Below are positions 2,558 to 59,933 of a stretch of DNA of 64,000 nucleotides, piece after piece; within the stretch, counting starts at the first letter, position 1; each line of letters begins with the position of its first letter. A program made the translations under genes and the position numbers. The DNA is from an uncultured bacterium. Its GTDB lineage: Bacteria; Vulcanimicrobiota; Xenobia; Xenobiales; Xenobiaceae. The notes below the pieces were generated by a model, which was given only the letters and a program-made list of their open reading frames with translations, was not told the DNA's origin and searched no databases. Location of the stretch: assembly GCA_934644775.1 (NCBI GenBank), contig CAKUDB010000008.1:10459-74458 (forward strand), given 5' to 3'.

Positions 2558-2770
2558 AATATTTACTGTTTACTTACTCCTGCCAGAAACTTGGTGGCCA
2601 TTTTTTATCAAAGTAGGCTAAAGCCCTGCCCTACTTTTATGCGAAATAGAGCAAAAAGGGCTTGGATGTAAAAATAACCAATTTTAGGAGGTTCTTAGAG
2701 CTGTTATGCGAAATTTGCCTGGCAGGTGTTATCTACCAAATAGCCCAAAGTGCATTAGGAGTTTTTAGTT

Positions 2771-3199
2771 ATGCAACCTGTGCAAATGAATCCCGCTTCT
2801 CTCAATACTATCGTCGGCCAGACAGCTATAACTACTCCAACTGCAACAGAAGCTCTCAGCAAGGCTTCAGTGTTGGGGATTATGAGTGGAATTACTCAAA
2901 AGCTGGTTAAAAAAAATAACGGCATCAATAAAGATTCTTCTGTAAGTGTCAGCTCTTCCGTGCCTCTTAGTGCAGCTTTGAGTGAATCTATAAACGGTAT
3001 TATGGTTATGGATCCTAATGCTCCTCAAGAAGAATGGATGCAAGAGATTACCTCTTCCTCAACTCCTCAAAATGAAGAAATGCAAGCTATGCAGCAGAGT
3101 TTCCAAAAGAGTCAAGAAGAAATGAATGGCAGGGTATCTTCTTTGGGAGTACCTATTCCCGGTATGGCTTCCGACAATTTGCAAGGACTTATACAGTAG
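2771..3199 (+). CDS. Hypothetical Q/S/M-rich protein
   Basis: ATG is preceded by AGGAG about 10 nt upstream. Low-complexity sequence with no recognisable domain. It lies immediately upstream of the zinc-ribbon protein at 3263. Confidence 0.5.
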   Translation: MQPVQMNPASLNTIVGQTAITTPTATEALSKASVLGIMSGITQKLVKKNNGINKDSSVSVSSSVPLSAALSESINGIMVMDPNAPQEEWMQEITSSSTPQNEEMQAMQQSFQKSQEEMNGRVSSLGVPIPGMASDNLQGLIQ

Positions 3200-3262
3200 C
3201 GATAGTAGCGATACTTTTTTGCCTCTTTATTTCTGTCAAATGCTGGGAATGGAAGTTTTAGT

Positions 3263-4879
3263 ATGATTGGTTATGGCACAACTTTAGAAGGAAATACTCC
3301 AGAGACTTTGTTGCCCCAAGATCTAGTTACCCCTTCATTAACAACCAATCGTTTAATTTTGCTTTGTATAAAAGTTTCTAGAGGGAATGCCGATCCGCGT
3401 GCTTTAGGCATAGTTTTAGAGGCCTACACGAAAGAATTGATTATTTCTAGAGATAATTTTCAAAAGCAAACGGCGACTGTCGCTCAAAGTCCCATTCCGG
3501 CTTTAGCTCAATCGGTTCAAGATGTAATTATTTCATTTGCTCAATATGCCGATATTATAGCCGGAGTGCGTTCTTGGTTTGCTTCTCCAGCTAACTATCC
3601 TTTAGAATCGGCTCCCGAACAAATTTTTGAAGGTTATGCCGAGTTACATAACTGTTTATTAGCTTACGAATGGAATTATCTTTGCCAAGGAGACAATCCC
3701 CATCCAGCTATAAATTTAATGGAAAAAGTTATCCAAGCTACCAAACAAGGAGCTATGGACGATGATAGACTCAGTGAGATCTTTGATCGCCTTTGGGATC
3801 ATTTTGCTAATAGCTTAGATACTTTTGAAAGAGATACCGATTTAGCTAGACGCAATCGCGGTACCGCTGCTATACGCCAAATTATGGCCGGTATCCAGAG
3901 TATGGATACCTATTTTCTCCAGTACGATCTTAACGCCTTAGACGCCGGCTTTATCAAATTTAGTGAAGGTTGCTTGCTATTAGTCGAGCTTATGCAGGAA
4001 AGCACCGGCGAAGCCTTGGCCGATAAGCCCACACCTTCTCCCCAAGTAAACTGGGTTATTCACGCCGCTAGGGCGGTACTTCTCGGACTAGATCCCAAGA
4101 TCTTAGAGCGAGCTCAATCCTGGTTTGAGCCCCAATTAGCCGAAAGCTACTTCCGCTTTGAGCAATGTGCCAACCAAGCCTTGGAAAGTTCTCCCCGTTT
4201 AGCTGAGCAAGTGCCTGTGGCTCGAGATGGTTTCGATCATCTGAACCGCGCTTTGCCCCTCTTGCGTTTAGGCATTAGCCGCCGTCCACTTTTACACAAA
4301 GCTATCCAATATTTGGAAGACGGAGCCAACCTTATTTGCCAAGCCTGGACCGTTTTTACCAAATTTGAAGAAGAAAACAGCAGCATTAGATGTCTACACT
4401 GTGGCTTCGAAAATAAAGCTTACTCTAAAGTTTGCGATCGCTGCGGAGCTCGCTTAGTGCTTCCGGCCAGTTATCAAGATCCGCAAGATGAAGGAGCTAC
4501 GGTGACAAATTATTCGAGCCGAGACGATTCAGAGAATAACGACACTTCAGACCACTTGTCCAGACTTATTGAAGCTTGCGACGCCGCTAAGTTTGGGCGT
4601 ATTGCTAAAGCAGAATTTGTCAGTGTTTTGGCCTGGGGTAAACAGTTACTTCGCTCAGCTTCGGCCAGCTTAAGCAAATTGCCACCTTCTAGCGACGATC
4701 CTAATATTGACAAAGCCCTCCACAGCTTGCACCAAGGTGTAGAAGAATTTAAACAAGGTATAGATGAAATGCAATGGTGGGCCGATACTGGGGCCAATTC
4801 TCACCTGGATATAGCTTCCCATATCCTCTTGCAAGCTTACACCCACTTTGTGGAAGTGCAAGAAATGGCTGGAAACTAA
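3263..4879 (+). CDS. Hypothetical helical-repeat protein with an embedded zinc ribbon (CX2C-X10-CX2C)
   Basis: Long ORF. The zinc ribbon CLHCGFENKAYSKVCDRC is encoded at 4391-4444. The flanking regions are predicted helical and resemble the protein at 58674-59933. Confidence 0.7.
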   Translation: MIGYGTTLEGNTPETLLPQDLVTPSLTTNRLILLCIKVSRGNADPRALGIVLEAYTKELIISRDNFQKQTATVAQSPIPALAQSVQDVIISFAQYADIIAGVRSWFASPANYPLESAPEQIFEGYAELHNCLLAYEWNYLCQGDNPHPAINLMEKVIQATKQGAMDDDRLSEIFDRLWDHFANSLDTFERDTDLARRNRGTAAIRQIMAGIQSMDTYFLQYDLNALDAGFIKFSEGCLLLVELMQESTGEALADKPTPSPQVNWVIHAARAVLLGLDPKILERAQSWFEPQLAESYFRFEQCANQALESSPRLAEQVPVARDGFDHLNRALPLLRLGISRRPLLHKAIQYLEDGANLICQAWTVFTKFEEENSSIRCLHCGFENKAYSKVCDRCGARLVLPASYQDPQDEGATVTNYSSRDDSENNDTSDHLSRLIEACDAAKFGRIAKAEFVSVLAWGKQLLRSASASLSKLPPSSDDPNIDKALHSLHQGVEEFKQGIDEMQWWADTGANSHLDIASHILLQAYTHFVEVQEMAGN

Positions 4880-4920
4880 ATTTAGCCATTTCTTGCCTAC
4901 TATGGGTAGCGGATCGGACG

Positions 4921-5844
4921 TTAATCCTTTACCATTCTGCACCCTAAAGCGATAGAATAGAACTTAGATTCTTCAGAATCGGCTCGACTAGTCAAGACAC
5001 AAGGCACATTGGCTCCAGCTACTATGCCGGCAACTTTAGCTTGAGCCAAAGTTGTACAAGCTTTATAGAAAGCATTGCCAGCTTCTAAGCAATGGAAGAT
5101 AAGTATATCAGCGCTACCTTCGGTAACAGTGGACAGCTTCTTAACTTGGCAACATTGGGGCGAAATGGCTACATCTAAAGCCAGAGGGCCATCTACCAAG
5201 CAAGCACCTAACTGACCACGCTCTCCCATTTTGGCCAAGGCAGCTGCTTCTACACAAGAAGCAATTTTTGGCAATACTTTTTCAGTAGGAGCTATTACGC
5301 CAACTCTAGGAGTTTCTATACCGAAGGAATGGGCTATTTCTACAGTATAGCGAATCATTTTCGCTTTAGTAGCCAAATCGGGAGCCGGAATTATAGCGGC
5401 ATCGCTAGCGAAAAGCAATTGATTATGCAGCTTTTTATATTGGGGGATTTCCAGACAAGTAACGTGGGTCAATACAGCCCCTTTAGGCAAAAGGCTGCGC
5501 TCTTTATCCAAAATTAAGTGCATATACTGATCGGTATTGATCAGCCCCTTCATTAAAACATCGGCCTTGCCTTCAAAAACCATATCGCGAGCGATAACGC
5601 CGGCTCCCCAAGGACTAGCTTCATCTACAATATTAAACAAATCGGAATTTATCGAATATTCTAGACACATCTCCTTTATTTGCTGAGCCTGTCCAACTAA
5701 TATTACTTCAGCGATACCTCTGTCGGCGGCTTGGGCAGCGGCCCTAATAGTACAATGATCGTGACCGGCGGCAACTACCAAACGCTTGAGAGGGTGCCCT
5801 TGTAAACTTTCTACGAGCTGATCTAAACTGCGAATCTGTTCCAA
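4921..5844 (-). CDS. ptb: Phosphate butyryltransferase
   Basis: Full-length similarity to clostridial Ptb (KGLINT, DGPLALDVA, VLTSRADS). The start is moved to the TTG at 5844, which is preceded by GGAGGT with a 6-nt spacer. The track start at 5919 is an upstream TTG with no RBS. Confidence 0.9.
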   Translation of the reverse strand: MEQIRSLDQLVESLQGHPLKRLVVAAGHDHCTIRAAAQAADRGIAEVILVGQAQQIKEMCLEYSINSDLFNIVDEASPWGAGVIARDMVFEGKADVLMKGLINTDQYMHLILDKERSLLPKGAVLTHVTCLEIPQYKKLHNQLLFASDAAIIPAPDLATKAKMIRYTVEIAHSFGIETPRVGVIAPTEKVLPKIASCVEAAALAKMGERGQLGACLVDGPLALDVAISPQCCQVKKLSTVTEGSADILIFHCLEAGNAFYKACTTLAQAKVAGIVAGANVPCVLTSRADSEESKFYSIALGCRMVKD

Positions 5845-55988: not shown

Positions 55989-57050
55989 TTATTTTAGCAA
56001 ATTGTTGCCTTCGAAATAATCAATTTTCATAGCATGGCGCACAGCTCGCAAAGTTTCAGCAGCTTTCTTCTGAGCCTTCTCACTACCTACACGCAAAATT
56101 TCATATACTTCCGGTAAACGTTTTTCCCAAGCTTGGCGACGTTCACGAATAGGCTTAAGCTCGGCTTGCATGACATTGTTGAGGAACTTCTTAACCACTA
56201 CATCACCTAAACCGCCACGCTCGTAGTGAGCTTTCAGTTCGGCTAAATTGGCGTATTCTGGCAAAAACTCAGCGAAATATTCATCGCGACAAAAAGCATC
56301 CAAGTAAATAAATACCGGATTACCTTCAGTATGGCCAGGATCTTCGCGACGTAAATGGGTAGGATCAGTAAACATAGACATTACTTTTTTGCGAATCTCT
56401 TCCGGCTCTTCGGAAAGATAGATACAATTGCCCAGCGATTTACTCATTTTAGCTTTACCATCAATGCCAGGTAAACGCAAACAGGCTTTATTGGAGGGCA
56501 AAATAATTTGCGGCTCTACCAAAGTTTCGCCATAAACAGTATTAAACTTGTGAACAATCTCCCGACACTGTTCTAACATGGGAAGCTGATCTTCGCCTAC
56601 AGGCACAGCTGTAGCCTGGAAAGCGGTAATATCAGAAGCTTGGCTAATAGGATAGCAGAAAAATCCTACCGGAATGCTAGCTTCAAAATTGCGCATTTGG
56701 ATCTCTGCTTTAACGGTAGGATTGCGCTGTACTCGCGAAACGGTCACTAAGTTCATATAATAGAAAGTGAGTTCCGTAAGCTCAGGAATCATAGACTGAA
56801 TGAAAATAGTGGATTTTTCCGGATCGAGACCACAAGCCAAATAGTCTAAAGCCACTTGCATAATGTTCTGACGCACTTTTTCTGGGTGCTCAGCATTATC
56901 AGTTAAAGCCTGAGCGTCGGCAATCATAATATAAATTTCATCAAAACGCCCAGAGTTTTGCAATTGGACACGCTCTTTCAAAGAGCCTACGTAGTGGCCC
57001 ACATGAAGACGACCGGTAGGACGGTCGCCCGTTAGAATAATCTGTTTCAT
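55989..57050 (-). CDS. trpS: Tryptophan--tRNA ligase
   Basis: GDRPTGRLHVGHYVG (HIGH-type) and KMSKS motifs. I prefer the ATG at 57050 (MKQIILTG), with GGAGGAG upstream, over the 18-aa longer track start. Confidence 0.9.
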   Translation of the reverse strand: MKQIILTGDRPTGRLHVGHYVGSLKERVQLQNSGRFDEIYIMIADAQALTDNAEHPEKVRQNIMQVALDYLACGLDPEKSTIFIQSMIPELTELTFYYMNLVTVSRVQRNPTVKAEIQMRNFEASIPVGFFCYPISQASDITAFQATAVPVGEDQLPMLEQCREIVHKFNTVYGETLVEPQIILPSNKACLRLPGIDGKAKMSKSLGNCIYLSEEPEEIRKKVMSMFTDPTHLRREDPGHTEGNPVFIYLDAFCRDEYFAEFLPEYANLAELKAHYERGGLGDVVVKKFLNNVMQAELKPIRERRQAWEKRLPEVYEILRVGSEKAQKKAAETLRAVRHAMKIDYFEGNNLLK

Positions 57051-57168: not shown

Positions 57169-57206
57169 TTCGCTCTAGTAAAATTAAAATTATTGGCCAA
57201 CAAAAA
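57169..57206. repeat. 38-bp direct repeat, copy 1 (trpS-proximal)
   Basis: ttcgctctagtaaaattaaaattAttggccaaCaaaaa. 36 of 38 positions are identical to 58594-58631. Confidence 0.85.
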
Positions 57207-57228
57207 TGTATAACTCCCTCATAATTAC

Positions 57229-58461
57229 TTAACTCAGCCAATCGATCAAGTTGACAACCTTTATACCATTATAAGAACTAATAAAATCTCTATCCATAGA
57301 CAAGACCATCTTTTCATAGTTATCCCTAAGCAATTGTAAAGGACGCAATTCACGCTCTCTAGTTTCAGGTGAGTTTATACTTTCGCTGACTTGAATATAC
57401 AACCTATGTTCAGGTTTTTCAGCTACGAAATCAATTTCCAGCTCTCCTACCTTACCTATGTATACATGATAACCGCGACGCAAAAGTTCAAGAAAAACGA
57501 CATTTTCAAGGATATGTCCCCTATCAGCATTGCGATACCCCAACAACATATTACGGAAGCCCAAGTCGATTATATAATTTTTTTCCAAAGTTTTTAAAAA
57601 CTGTTTTCCTTTTAGATCATAGCGGCCTATAGAATAAAAGAAAAAAGCGTTATGTAACATACTTAAATATTTATTGATAGTTTTGCCAGCAATATTTTTA
57701 TCACGACCAGAGGGCAGATATTTCTCATTGGCCAAATTATTACCAATGCTATTAGGAGAAGTTATACTGCCTATATTAGAGCACAAAAACAGAACTAGCT
57801 TTTGCAATATAGCTTGTTCAACTTGTCCCTGACGTTGTAAAATGTCGCGCAAGATGACAGTCGAGTAAATTCCTTCCATAACTTGATTTATGCGAGCTTC
57901 GTTGAACTTATACTCACGCAAAACAGGCATACCGCCAAATTTTAAGTATTTTTGAAATTTATCATATTTATTATCATCAGAAGAAAATTCGTGAAATATT
58001 AAAAACTCTCTAAATGATAGAGGAAGAACTTTTATTTCTACATATCGTCCCGAAAGCAAAGTGGATAACTCTGTAGAAAGTAGGTAAGCATTGGAGCCGG
58101 TTATATAAATATCAACATCAAAATCTAAACGAAAAGATTCTATAGCTTTTTCCCAATGCTCTACCTCTTGTACCTCATCAAAAATTAAATAATTCTTACC
58201 ATTATCGGAAATTTTAGAAGCTATATAATCATAAAGGGATAAGTAATTAGTTAATTTCCTGTAACGCAGTGATTCAAAATTTATATCGATAATATTTTTC
58301 TCCGCTATGCCATTTCTTAGTAAATAGCGACGAAATAATTCCAACAAAGACGATTTACCACAACGCCTTATACCAGTAATAATTTTTACCAGATCGACAT
58401 CCTTATGTTCTATCAGCTGCTGTAAATAATCATTCCTACCTATTAACTCTACCATTTCCAA
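57229..58461 (-). CDS. AAA-family ATPase with a DUF4143-type C-terminus (COG1373-like)
   Basis: ITGIRRCGKSSLL (Walker A), LIFDEVQEVEHW (Walker B), ITGSNAYLL, LSGRYVEIKVLPLSFREF. The gene is visibly more AT-rich than its neighbours. Confidence 0.85.
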   Translation of the reverse strand: MEMVELIGRNDYLQQLIEHKDVDLVKIITGIRRCGKSSLLELFRRYLLRNGIAEKNIIDINFESLRYRKLTNYLSLYDYIASKISDNGKNYLIFDEVQEVEHWEKAIESFRLDFDVDIYITGSNAYLLSTELSTLLSGRYVEIKVLPLSFREFLIFHEFSSDDNKYDKFQKYLKFGGMPVLREYKFNEARINQVMEGIYSTVILRDILQRQGQVEQAILQKLVLFLCSNIGSITSPNSIGNNLANEKYLPSGRDKNIAGKTINKYLSMLHNAFFFYSIGRYDLKGKQFLKTLEKNYIIDLGFRNMLLGYRNADRGHILENVVFLELLRRGYHVYIGKVGELEIDFVAEKPEHRLYIQVSESINSPETRERELRPLQLLRDNYEKMVLSMDRDFISSYNGIKVVNLIDWLS

Positions 58462-58593
58462 CCTACTTTTGTATTTTACAATAAATTTCCTAAAAATCTG
58501 TCAAAAGTTTTCGACTAAACATACCAAAACTTTCTAAAAAATATAAGTTTTCAAAAAGTTTTTCTAAAACTTATATAAAAAAACCGATTGGCT

Positions 58594-58631
58594 TTCGCTC
58601 TAGTAAAATTAAAATTGTTGGCCAATAAAAA
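58594..58631. repeat. 38-bp direct repeat, copy 2
   Basis: ttcgctctagtaaaattaaaattGttggccaaTaaaaa. It lies 1425 bp from copy 1 in the same orientation. Confidence 0.85.
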
Positions 58632-58673
58632 CTAAAAAAGGTAGTAAATAAATAAGCTAGAAACCATGGCAAC

Positions 58674-59933
58674 ATGGATCCTTTTGAACTTTCTATATCG
58701 CCTGTTTTTAATGAAGTTATTCGAGCTGCCGAATCGGTTTATGAAGCTCCCGACGACCCTTCCGCTAAAGAAGAGCTTTCCCAAACCTTGCGTGATATGG
58801 CAGAATTTACTCAATATTTAGCCGCTTCATTTCAAGAAGCTATAAAGGTTCGCCCCAAAACGGAACTTTCCATTAGAGCTCCGCAAGAATTTGCTGCCGA
58901 GCTAAAAGTTATTACCAATGTTTTGAGCTCTTTGAAACAGAACTTGGGAGACAATAAGACTGAGCCCTTCCCCCAGCTTATAGATCAAGGGCGCAAGGCT
59001 TTGGCCCAAATGTTCGAGATCTTTGAACAAATGAAGAAGGAAGAAGAGTCCTTCCCCGTCTTTTCCAAGTCTCCCTATATTCAAGAGATCGTCCGTATCG
59101 CCACAGGAGTTGCCAAAGGCCAATACAAACCCGAAGTGCTTAAAGATAAGGTAGCTTGGCTGCGCGATCGCTTCTTGGAATTTAAAGATGATTTTGCCAG
59201 TATCAAAGATATTCCCAAGGAAAATGACGAAGTAGAGAAGCTGCTGCCTATTGCCGAACAGGCCTTGCAAAAGATGGGCCAAGCCTTAGACAAGATGACT
59301 CGTTTCCAGAAAAAATACGATAAGAACCTTCTGAAAGAAGGTTGTTCCGAGTTATTACAGAGCAGCGAAGTGCTTATCGCCGTCCAAGAGAGGCTAATGA
59401 AAGCTTCTACCGCCCAGCCTGTCGCTTGTCCTAATTGCGGCGCTATCAATCCCGGCGGAGCCAAGAAATGTCGCGCTTGCAATGGTATTTTGCCTACTAT
59501 TGTCGGCCTGTCGACTCAAACAATGGAAATAAAAGAGAATCTTCCTCTGGAGAATAAAGGGCCGGCCTATACTTATATTGCCAGGCTGGAAGGCTCACTC
59601 AATTCTTATAAGCGCCATCTCTTGGACGAAAAGGATCTTAAGCGTGAAATAGACTTTTTTGCCCAAAAAGTGGCTGACGGTCTGACCCAATTTGGCCAAA
59701 TGAAGAAAAAAGCCGCCACCCAGAGCGAAGGCCAAGAAGGTAACTATGAAGCCATACTTTCCCTCTATAAGGATATGGAAACCGGCTTAAATACTCTCTC
59801 CAGAGGGGTCAAAAAGATGCAAAGCTTCTTTGACAGCCAGGACGACCAAGTCTTAGATGAAGGTTTTGATGTTGTAGTTGCAGGAGCAACCTTAATGATA
59901 GATACCCAAAATAAGGTTGCTGCTGTTAGATAG
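58674..59933 (+). CDS. Hypothetical helical-repeat protein with an embedded zinc ribbon (CX2C-X10-CX2C)
   Basis: The zinc ribbon CPNCGAINPGGAKKCRAC is encoded at 59427-59480. The architecture parallels 3263-4879. Confidence 0.7.
   Translation: MDPFELSISPVFNEVIRAAESVYEAPDDPSAKEELSQTLRDMAEFTQYLAASFQEAIKVRPKTELSIRAPQEFAAELKVITNVLSSLKQNLGDNKTEPFPQLIDQGRKALAQMFEIFEQMKKEEESFPVFSKSPYIQEIVRIATGVAKGQYKPEVLKDKVAWLRDRFLEFKDDFASIKDIPKENDEVEKLLPIAEQALQKMGQALDKMTRFQKKYDKNLLKEGCSELLQSSEVLIAVQERLMKASTAQPVACPNCGAINPGGAKKCRACNGILPTIVGLSTQTMEIKENLPLENKGPAYTYIARLEGSLNSYKRHLLDEKDLKREIDFFAQKVADGLTQFGQMKKKAATQSEGQEGNYEAILSLYKDMETGLNTLSRGVKKMQSFFDSQDDQVLDEGFDVVVAGATLMIDTQNKVAAVR

Follow-up and report, generated by a model that had tools for sequence, protein, structure and literature searches.

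A PDC-S01-type ATPase gene between 38-bp direct repeats upstream of trpS in an uncultured gut Xenobiaceae bacterium

How a single gene of a candidate defence family comes to lie between two housekeeping genes, bracketed by two copies of a 38-bp sequence, is the question raised by a locus of an uncultured gut bacterium. The host lineage is a Candidatus Bruticola-like member of the Xenobiaceae, whose phylum, Vulcanimicrobiota in NCBI taxonomy, is the same as Eremiobacterota. We followed up the locus in a stretch of 64,000 nucleotides (the window), asking whether the repeats are the scar of an insertion or a regulatory element, what the gene encodes, and where it may have come from.

The repeats, the insert and the empty site

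The direct repeats (TTCGCTCTAGTAAAATTAAAATTRTTGGCCAAYAAAAA) occupy positions 57169–57206 and 58594–58631 in like orientation, 1425 bp apart and identical at 36 of 38 positions, confirming the original prediction in position, orientation, spacing and identity. None of 100 shuffles of the sequence yielded a repeat match. No further copies of the 38-mer exist in the 2.36-Mb genome (up to three mismatches), so the reading of it as a dispersed regulatory motif, which had been set against the prediction, fails; a short-word blastn search with the 38-mer found elsewhere just 12–20-nt AT-rich chance matches, several apparently within coding sequence. A 52-nt repeat, obtained by extension at 85% identity, was rejected, as the added outer 14 nt match at only 8/14 positions and, by hand alignment, the outer part in other cassette-bearing lineages matches at 8/21 and is not convincingly similar. 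The repeat length was taken as 38–41 bp.

The target is a divergent spacer of about 200 bp between trpS (55989–57050, minus strand; tryptophan--tRNA ligase, Pfam tRNA-synt_1b, E 7e-54) and the gene for a helical zinc-ribbon protein of 419 aa that is conserved through the family and order (58674–59933, plus strand). Empty-site alignment shows the left repeat copy running on from the conserved trpS-side spacer (GTTTGGTTGCTAAAG..GTTTTCC). The right copy runs into AAAAAAGGTAGTAAATAAATAAGCTAGAAAC (58634–58664, plus strand), a block just upstream of the zinc-ribbon gene start that is conserved genus-wide in our alignments and forms the right edge of the target. The most conserved part of the spacer, the core AATTAAAA, lies inside the duplicated segment and is invariant across the genus, and between species the 38-mer homologues drift freely except in AATTAAAA and TTYGCT. 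The palindrome TTGGCCAA and the TACTAG "-10" that had been noted in the repeats do exist as species-specific features, but they are not conserved in congeners. The Rfam search of the whole window matched no family, and thus no T-box or other leader is indicated at trpS.

Between the repeats lies an insert of 1387 bp (57207–58593, minus strand), which is absent from five congeners and comprises a short 3' tail, the ATPase gene and the gene's own upstream regulatory region. As predicted, the repeats enclose exactly one gene, the only open reading frame of the insert with a Pfam match. The AT-richness noted by eye was borne out by both measures of composition: the GC content of 0.323, against a genome mean of 0.452, falls in the lowest 0.04% of equal-sized windows, and the tetranucleotide distance from the genome falls in the top 0.9%. 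Neither terminal inverted repeats nor a conserved cassette end was found at the cassette ends. An approach to these ends through DNA homology with Clostridia loci was abandoned, since the coding region alone aligns (65–69%). No tyrosine or serine recombinase is encoded by the genes up to about 5 kb to the left or right; those nearby are trpS, a methyltransferase gene, a GGDEF-EAL protein gene, genes for two zinc-ribbon proteins and glgP. By inspection the repeats have no inverted arms of a dif/Xer site, and GC skew keeps its sign here.

Five congeners, all Candidatus Bruticola-like Xenobiaceae from guts (G001, G005, G007, G008 and G002), carry the empty site: trpS, syntenic in all five, adjoins the zinc-ribbon gene, with one homologue of the 38-mer and no ATPase. 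This comparison supports the first of the two predicted origins, cassette insertion with duplication of the target. G008 and G002 form the outgroup in the tree of trpS and the zinc-ribbon gene, which makes the empty state the ancestral one. Three further lineages have the cassette, namely G004 (L025/L036), the P0010-type (L097) and the P0008-type (L103), all at this site, in this orientation and with identical boundaries of the repeats. The window's species, which occurs in gut metagenomes including Hadza samples, yielded no empty-site allele. Some Logan contigs stop at position 3 of the right repeat; we do not take them as empty alleles, because a strain variant shares 32 identical bases between the copies and so breaks the 31-mer assembly graph there.

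The ATPase, its regulatory region and its source

The inserted gene (57229–58455, minus strand) encodes an ATPase of 408 aa with AAA_14 (PF13173, E 3.6e-34) and DUF4143 (PF13635, E 1.5e-16) domains, identified by Pfam, PADLOC and alignment as a PADLOC PDC-S01 candidate. The start had been placed at a TTG at 58461; the ATG at 58455 is likelier and is the one called on 23 public contigs. The PDC-S01 profile PDLC04787 matches residues 3–407 of 408 (E 5.9e-155), and six more PDC-S01 profiles match as well. Walker A (G28–K34) and Walker B (D93–E94) are intact, with G28, G33, K34, D93 and E94 invariant among 35 homologues. In the C-terminal nuclease-like domain, E317, E340, D342, R368 and E369 are invariant and Q355 is nearly invariant in the homologue alignment. 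The AlphaFold2 (AF2) model (pLDDT 89) lays this domain out as alpha-beta-beta-beta-alpha-beta, and its third predicted nuclease motif reads Q-V-S instead of (D/E)-x-K, with no assignable lysine. The best whole-protein structural matches are ATPases, including the Pyrococcus abyssi Walker ATPase 2qen, Orc1/Cdc6 and Apaf-1/CED-4; a sequence search of the PDB gave no match, and PHROGs and NCBIfam searches gave nothing useful. Family membership suggests that the protein is an ORC/STAND-like, NTP-dependent ATPase carrying a winged helix and a putative nuclease domain of PD-(D/E)XK type. DUF4143 is listed among the PD-(D/E)XK families (PMC3424549).

The full-length profile match and the AAA_14 plus DUF4143/PD-(D/E)XK architecture (COG1373) liken the protein to PDC-S01, and the suggested link to defence holds in this respect; it does not extend to the neighbourhood, which contains no defence system. 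PDC-S01 was proposed from its embedding in, or proximity to, defence systems, whereas this ATPase sits between housekeeping genes. One relative, P0007, does adjoin AbiEii, UvrD and ResIII genes. The ATPase also resembles PDC-S01 as a single-gene unit with a patchy distribution and transfers between phyla, all three of which have been described for that family (PMC12988326). PDC-S01 is a candidate with unvalidated defence activity (PMC12988326), and neither 10.1101/2024.01.29.577857 nor PMC12988326 describes flanking duplications or an insertion mechanism for it. Judged solely by its family membership, the ATPase is most likely a single-gene defence directed at foreign nucleic acid and, by the same token, is probably autoregulated at the inverted repeats upstream of it.

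These inverted repeats belong to a regulatory region of the cassette's own. On the ATPase strand (minus), a promoter-like pair at 58473–58504 consists of TTGACA (58499–58504) and TAAAAT (58473–58478). Its spacer is 20 nt here versus about 15–16 nt in Lachnospiraceae homologues (hand count), and a consensus promoter scan missed the pair because of this long spacer. A motif search placed one operator-like inverted repeat, AAGTTTT-N14-AAAACTT, directly against TTGACA (58505–58532) and a second of the same form 40 nt from the first (58545–58572). The pattern AAGTTTY-N14-RAAACTT occurs twice in the genome, both times in the cassette, against 0.22 occurrences expected by chance. A homologous inverted repeat stands upstream of the ATPase gene in G004, the P0010-type, the P0008-type, L037 and L038, which span two phyla. 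The proposal that the duplicated trpS-side sequence serves as the ATPase promoter is thus superseded, as the gene has its own upstream region, conserved in the Lachnospiraceae homologues.

Judging by its composition and phylogeny, the gene is foreign and was most likely acquired from gut Clostridia. The four Bruticola alleles form a monophyletic group (SH-aLRT 99) and have as their sister a Lachnospiraceae/Blautia clade (SH-aLRT 99; 72–75% amino acid identity). Together they sit inside an otherwise almost purely Clostridia clade, and the remaining Xenobia paralogues are scattered over several other clades.

Allele divergence and repeats at related loci

The history of the cassette since its arrival appears complex. 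Between lineages its alleles differ by about 18% at the nucleotide level, whereas the two repeat copies of a species hardly differ. Between the window's ATPase and the G004 allele, dN is 0.068, dS 1.27 and dN/dS 0.05; by this measure the ATPase is under purifying selection. Similar dS between G000 and G004 suggested simple co-divergence of cassette and flanks, which we rejected: the flanks of G004, the P0010-type and the P0008-type are 91–95% identical, and the G004 allele is only 81–84% identical to the other two. As far as such divergences can date it, the insertion is not recent in a simple sense.

The repeats also carry traces of exchange. In the P0010-type the left arm is G004-like in the left copy and G001-like in the right copy, and the pair shares an identical centre of about 19 nt, a mosaic such as crossing over inside the repeat would produce. 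Strains of the window species (99.6–99.8% identical) vary at three repeat positions, and at position 24 of the left copy and position 33 of the right copy some strains carry the other copy's base; the pair was probably perfect in a recent ancestor of these strains. Diverged alleles together with species-specific or mosaic repeats point to recombination both between the copies and between lineages. Compared with every other lineage, the two copies of the window species have many species-specific changes in common; this would need complete homogenisation, and a fresh, independent insertion is an equally good reading of it.

Bracketing is not confined to this locus. Direct repeats of 23–165 nt, unique or largely unique to their locus, bracket the gene at 5 of 75 other PDC-S01 loci, compared with 8 of 1184 ordinary genes in this genome (Fisher p 6e-4) and none of 70 local control intervals. 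They are 165 nt long at L044, 78 nt at L148, 42 nt at L136, 42 nt at L140 (42/42 identical) and 23 nt at L142 (23/23). An empty site is confirmed for one of the five, L044, by G042; for the L140 insertion (G010), the comparison with G014 yielded no recoverable synteny. The repeats at these loci do not resemble one another in sequence, and a comparison of the bracketed loci revealed neither conserved termini nor inverted repeats. About 90% of the examined PDC-S01 loci have no bracketing repeats. G010 and G015 have 12–14 matches to the family apiece. Bracketing of this kind also affects two genes of the window's genome that belong to an unrelated family, SLFN_AlbA_2/HATPase_c_4. That bracketing recurs at PDC-S01 loci is a hint that the mechanism is tied to the family and was not a single accident.

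Explanations for the bracketed cassette

The account that we consider probable is a single insertion followed by persistence, exchange between congeners and homogenisation of the repeats. A single event is suggested by the four carrier lineages, which have the site, the orientation and the boundaries of the repeats in common and whose ATPases group in one clade. The cassette would then have been kept as a presence/absence polymorphism under purifying selection and passed among congeners by homologous recombination, while recombination between the copies kept them alike within species. The latter may have been gene conversion, or looping out of a circle with one repeat followed by Campbell-type reintegration into a relative's empty site. 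Campbell-type recombination would account for the repeats as the segment of homology, for precise loss to one copy, for the mosaics, and for both copies coming to match the native sequence of the recipient; it leaves the first duplication unexplained. A length of 38 bp is close to the lower limit for RecA-dependent exchange. Because the spacer core was duplicated, the upstream signals of both neighbours were probably left in place, and this would explain the survival of the insertion.

The first duplication does not fit the familiar routes. Like insertion sequences, transposons and casposons, the cassette has a target duplication around it and empty sites in relatives, but it contains no transposase, Cas1 or terminal inverted repeats. 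A duplication of 38–41 bp is too long for known transposase staggers; it is several times the length of typical target-site duplications, and at the other bracketed loci of the family the length varies from 23 to 165 nt. An integron cassette would have an integrase nearby and a cassette-borne, imperfectly palindromic attC, whereas here there is no nearby integrase and the repeats copy the target. One alternative, which we judge unlikely, is an active mobile unit, site-specific or target-duplicating, that entered each lineage separately and made a fresh long duplication on every occasion; the machinery would come from the ATPase-nuclease or be provided in trans. It would accommodate species-specific repeat pairs alongside an 18% difference between the cassette alleles of different lineages, the excess of bracketed PDC-S01 genes (5/75 against 8/1184 and 0/70), and the 12–14 family matches in G010 and in G015. 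However, some 90% of examined loci lack such repeats, lengths of 23–165 nt are unlike any fixed stagger, and conserved termini or inverted repeats were not found. Moreover, the four alleles are monophyletic and occur at one site only, and the P0010-type mosaic suits homologous crossover better than fresh duplication. The bracketing of the unrelated SLFN_AlbA_2/HATPase_c_4 genes counts against the ATPase itself encoding the mechanism.

The repeats might also be attL and attR of an element whose integrase was lost or acts in trans, such as a cis-mobilisable remnant or an Xer-dependent module. Small foreign DNA between direct repeats of tens of bp, with a single-copy empty site, is typical of integrative elements and their integrase-less remnants, and the hybrid arms and identical centre in the one P0010-type lineage resemble BOP'/POB' hybrids. 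Against these likenesses, which leave this explanation very unlikely in our view, neither the cassette nor its neighbours encode a recombinase, and the repeat drifts between species outside AATTAAAA and TTYGCT, which seems unlike a conserved recombinase core. The repeats at other PDC-S01 loci are unrelated in sequence and range from 23 to 165 nt. Known pdif modules are flanked by inverted Xer sites and lie on plasmids; here dif-like inverted arms are missing and the sign of GC skew does not change. Almost no weight remains for the view that the 38-mers are an operator or promoter shared by many genes, regulatory rather than a scar. Each copy does lie upstream of a minus-strand gene, and the core AATTAAAA is invariant in the genus, but a shared operator is refuted by the two-copy count in 2.36 Mb and by the ATPase-less relatives, which have a single copy, and the ATPase already has its own conserved upstream region.

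Beyond the single insertion favoured for this locus lies a wider idea that we hold only tentatively and regard as rather improbable: single-gene defence-type cassettes, PDC-S01 and perhaps SLFN_AlbA_2/HATPase_c_4, would spread by a recurrent, undescribed route that leaves variable, locus-specific target duplications of 23–165 bp. The duplications often span hairpins, terminators or promoter cores, and the repeats would make the gene a self-contained unit that can loop out as a circle and re-enter the empty sites of relatives.

We know of no route by which a PDC-S01 gene lands singly between unrelated genes. The family is reported to be among the commonest candidate defence genes in prokaryotes, with about 39,000 loci in complete genomes (PMC12988326). 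The locus offers a clean natural experiment, with sister species that have or lack the insert, junctions known exactly, a probable donor clade, cassette-borne operator-like repeats and diverged alleles at one site. The gene family is already known; what is modestly new is the lead given by the recurrence of long flanking duplications. If such duplications are not general, the locus is a well-documented but ordinary horizontal gain of an accessory gene. If they are general, they would provide a sequence-level handle for finding such cassettes and testing their movement, and a recurrent route, if true, would account for defence-type genes embedded singly between or inside other genes.

A single-gene cassette between trpS and a zinc-ribbon gene

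The bracketing noted for the cassette at 57207–58593 (1387 bp), between trpS (55989–57050) and a zinc-ribbon gene (58674–59933), was reproduced in full: coordinates, direct orientation, 1425-bp spacing and 36/38 identity of two 38-mers, at 57169–57206 and 58594–58631, all agree, and exactly one gene, encoding AAA_14 and DUF4143 domains, lies between them on the minus strand. Shuffled sequence gave no matches to the pair. In the whole 2.36-Mb assembly (G000), of which the window covers contig C8:10459–74458, just these two copies occur with up to three mismatches allowed, which argues against a dispersed motif, and a sensitive blastn search for further 38-mers returned only AT-rich chance matches of 12–20 nt, several apparently within coding sequence. 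The suspected AT-richness of the insert was also borne out: its GC content of 32.3% falls in the bottom 0.04% of windows of that size (the genome averages 45.3%), and its tetranucleotide composition is among the most deviant 0.9%.

The host tryptophanyl-tRNA synthetase matches proteins annotated as 'Candidatus Bruticola sp.' or 'bacterium UBP9_UBA11836' at 93–98% identity. NCBI classifies Candidatus Bruticola under Xenobiaceae in the phylum Vulcanimicrobiota (= Eremiobacterota), and the locus sits on contigs from gut metagenomes of humans and animals. The zinc-ribbon neighbour is kept in 41/41 relatives searched. In five congeners (G001, G005, G007, G008, and G002) trpS directly adjoins it, and the spacer holds one 38-mer homologue without the ATPase, an empty site as the original prediction had anticipated. 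In the window, the left 38-mer runs on into the conserved trpS-side spacer and the right one is followed by a conserved block that precedes the zinc-ribbon gene; the doubled segment has sharp ends and measures 38–41 bp. Insertion with target duplication thus stands, on the empty and filled sites and the continuity of both copies with the target. Because G008 and G002, both empty, form the outgroup in the tree of trpS and the zinc-ribbon gene, the empty state is ancestral. The congener G004 and two further lineages found via public contigs (P0010-type and P0008-type) carry the cassette with the same site, orientation, and repeat boundaries, and 23 of 23 contigs of the window's species are filled; the cassette is fixed in this species but polymorphic within the genus. 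Immediately before the start of the zinc-ribbon gene, the block AAAAAAGGTAGTAAATAARTAAGCTAGAAAC (58634–58664) hardly varies among seven Bruticola species, its conservation far above that of the remaining spacer, and may represent a promoter, leader, or binding site.

Source of the cassette and history of its repeats

The nearest ATPase relatives outside the genus belong to gut Lachnospiraceae and Blautia (72–75% identity), where the gene adjoins lon in an IS-rich region. In the maximum-likelihood tree, the four Bruticola alleles form one clade (SH-aLRT 99), sister (99) to the Lachnospiraceae group and nested within an otherwise almost purely Clostridia clade, while other Xenobia paralogues are spread over several other clades. 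The ATPase tree and the low GC content support one acquisition from Clostridia. In the gut Lachnospiraceae contigs (L107–L112), the region around lon and the closest non-Bruticola homologue (about 75% at the amino acid level), which are neighbours, is variable and contains IS605 OrfB/TnpB and DDE transposases; one contig also has a serine recombinase with VapE.

The ATPase and the flanks show the same dS when G000 is compared with G004. The flanks of G004, P0010-type, and P0008-type are 91–95% identical, but the G004 cassette allele is only 81–84% identical to the P0010-type and P0008-type alleles; therefore, cassette and flanks differ in history. The repeat pair of G000 is specific to its species, that of G004 only in part. 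In P0010-type, the left arm is G004-like in the left copy and G001-like in the right copy around an identical centre, and the left copy of P0008-type is G005-like. Such mosaics are the expected product of crossover inside the repeat, via homologous replacement or Campbell-type entry of a one-repeat circle. Three repeat positions vary among strains of the window's species, which are 99.6–99.8% identical; at position 24 of the left copy and position 33 of the right copy, some strains carry the other copy's base. The two copies were thus either alike in the strains' recent ancestor or are still exchanging sequence. We favour a single insertion event followed by homologous exchange as the probable history, ahead of the main rival, an active target-duplicating element, which we consider rather unlikely.

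The ATPase and its control region

The ATPase belongs to PDC-S01, a candidate defence family of PADLOC (full-length match, E 5.9e-155), which answers the earlier question of a defence association at the level of family membership; a defence role is a candidate one. PDC-S01 was proposed as single-gene defence since such genes occur inside known defence systems (bioRxiv 10.1101/2024.01.29.577857). The family is reported to be very abundant and to join an ATPase to a PD-(D/E)XK domain, with validation pending (PMC12988326), and DUF4143 is counted among PD-(D/E)XK families (PMC3424549). The residues of Walker A and B as well as E317, E340, D342, R368, and E369 do not vary among 35 homologues, and Q355 is nearly invariant; no canonical lysine of the putative nuclease motif could be assigned. 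The N-terminal part of the AlphaFold model (pLDDT 89) resembles the Pyrococcus abyssi Walker ATPase 2qen, Orc1/Cdc6, and Apaf-1/CED-4. The dN/dS of 0.05 against the G004 allele indicates that the gene is maintained. A 571-aa relative, P0007 (L105; GCA_029782595.1, contig JARCCX010006611.1), is surrounded by genes for AbiEii, a UvrD-like helicase, ResIII, and AEP-TOTE, a defence-island-like setting, unlike that of the window. Elsewhere in G000, C12:57539–57889 encodes a C-terminal piece (117 residues) of another DUF4143 ATPase, 44% identical to that of the window and probably a paralogue in decay; apart from it, G000 has none of the ATPase paralogues that its congeners carry.

The 38-mer had been noted to contain a promoter-like arrangement upstream of the ATPase start; as the ATPase promoter it is dispensable because the cassette has its own conserved upstream region. 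On the ATPase strand, TTGACA and TAAAAT precede the ATG with a spacer of 20 nt (about 15–16 nt in the Lachnospiraceae genes, counted by hand), and two copies of the inverted repeat AAGTTTT-N14-AAAACTT lie upstream at 58505–58532 and 58545–58572, its only occurrences in the genome. G004, P0010-type, P0008-type, and two Lachnospiraceae loci have the same inverted repeat (≤2 mismatches) upstream of their ATPase genes, at distances of 67–121 nt. The TTGGCCAA and TACTAG elements ascribed to the 38-mer are present in the window's species but are species-specific, not conserved in congeners. In P0010-type and P0008-type (L097 and L103), the edge of the right repeat that faces the cassette forms a 9-bp stem, TATAGCAAG-N11-CTTGCTATA, followed by a T-run on the ATPase strand; this terminator-like hairpin could shield the cassette from the trpS-side sequence that was duplicated.

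Bracketing repeats at other loci

When the two 600-nt flanks of each of 75 other PDC-S01 genes were compared for their best ungapped direct repeat, 5 of the 75 loci scored at least 20, the majority being without repeats. An Oscillospiraceae MAG (L044) has a repeat of about 165 nt, unique as a pair save for a dispersed hairpin core, and an empty site in its relative G042. Repeats at L140 (genome G010; 42/42) and L142 (genome G015; 23/23) exist in two copies only; L148 (G015) has a 78-nt repeat around a dispersed element, and L136 (G010) a 42-nt hairpin that occurs three times, the third copy shortly before a truncated ATPase. A sixth locus, L065, scored marginally; in this uncultured Bacteroidales (2700–5152), a 45-nt element occurs three times at spacings of 1605 and 803 nt, so that the ATPase and, after it, a second short segment are bracketed in an array-like arrangement. 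Conserved cassette ends were not found.

Outside the window, the genome-wide scan of G000 for bracketed genes matched two low-GC (0.38–0.39) single genes with SLFN_AlbA_2, HATPase_c_4, and wHTH domains (C12:67927–69680 and C26:2395–3915), whose direct repeats are each found as that pair alone (47 nt at 46/47; a 38-nt terminator-like hairpin at 37/38). The C12 repeat looks as if the gene upstream had its 3' coding end duplicated. The remaining strong matches were a gene for a 1095-aa secreted protein between perfect 149-nt direct repeats (C1:53613–56897) and two tandem lipoprotein paralogues with repeated spacers of 73–252 nt (C18:2600–6256).

Shifted intervals at the same PDC-S01 loci gave 0/70 above a score of 15, and 8 of 1184 other genes of G000 reached at least 20 (Fisher p = 6e-4 against the 5/75). 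Since two of these eight background genes are low-GC SLFN_AlbA_2/HATPase_c_4/wHTH genes bracketed alike, the pattern may be a general trait of small accessory cassettes rather than of the ATPase in particular.
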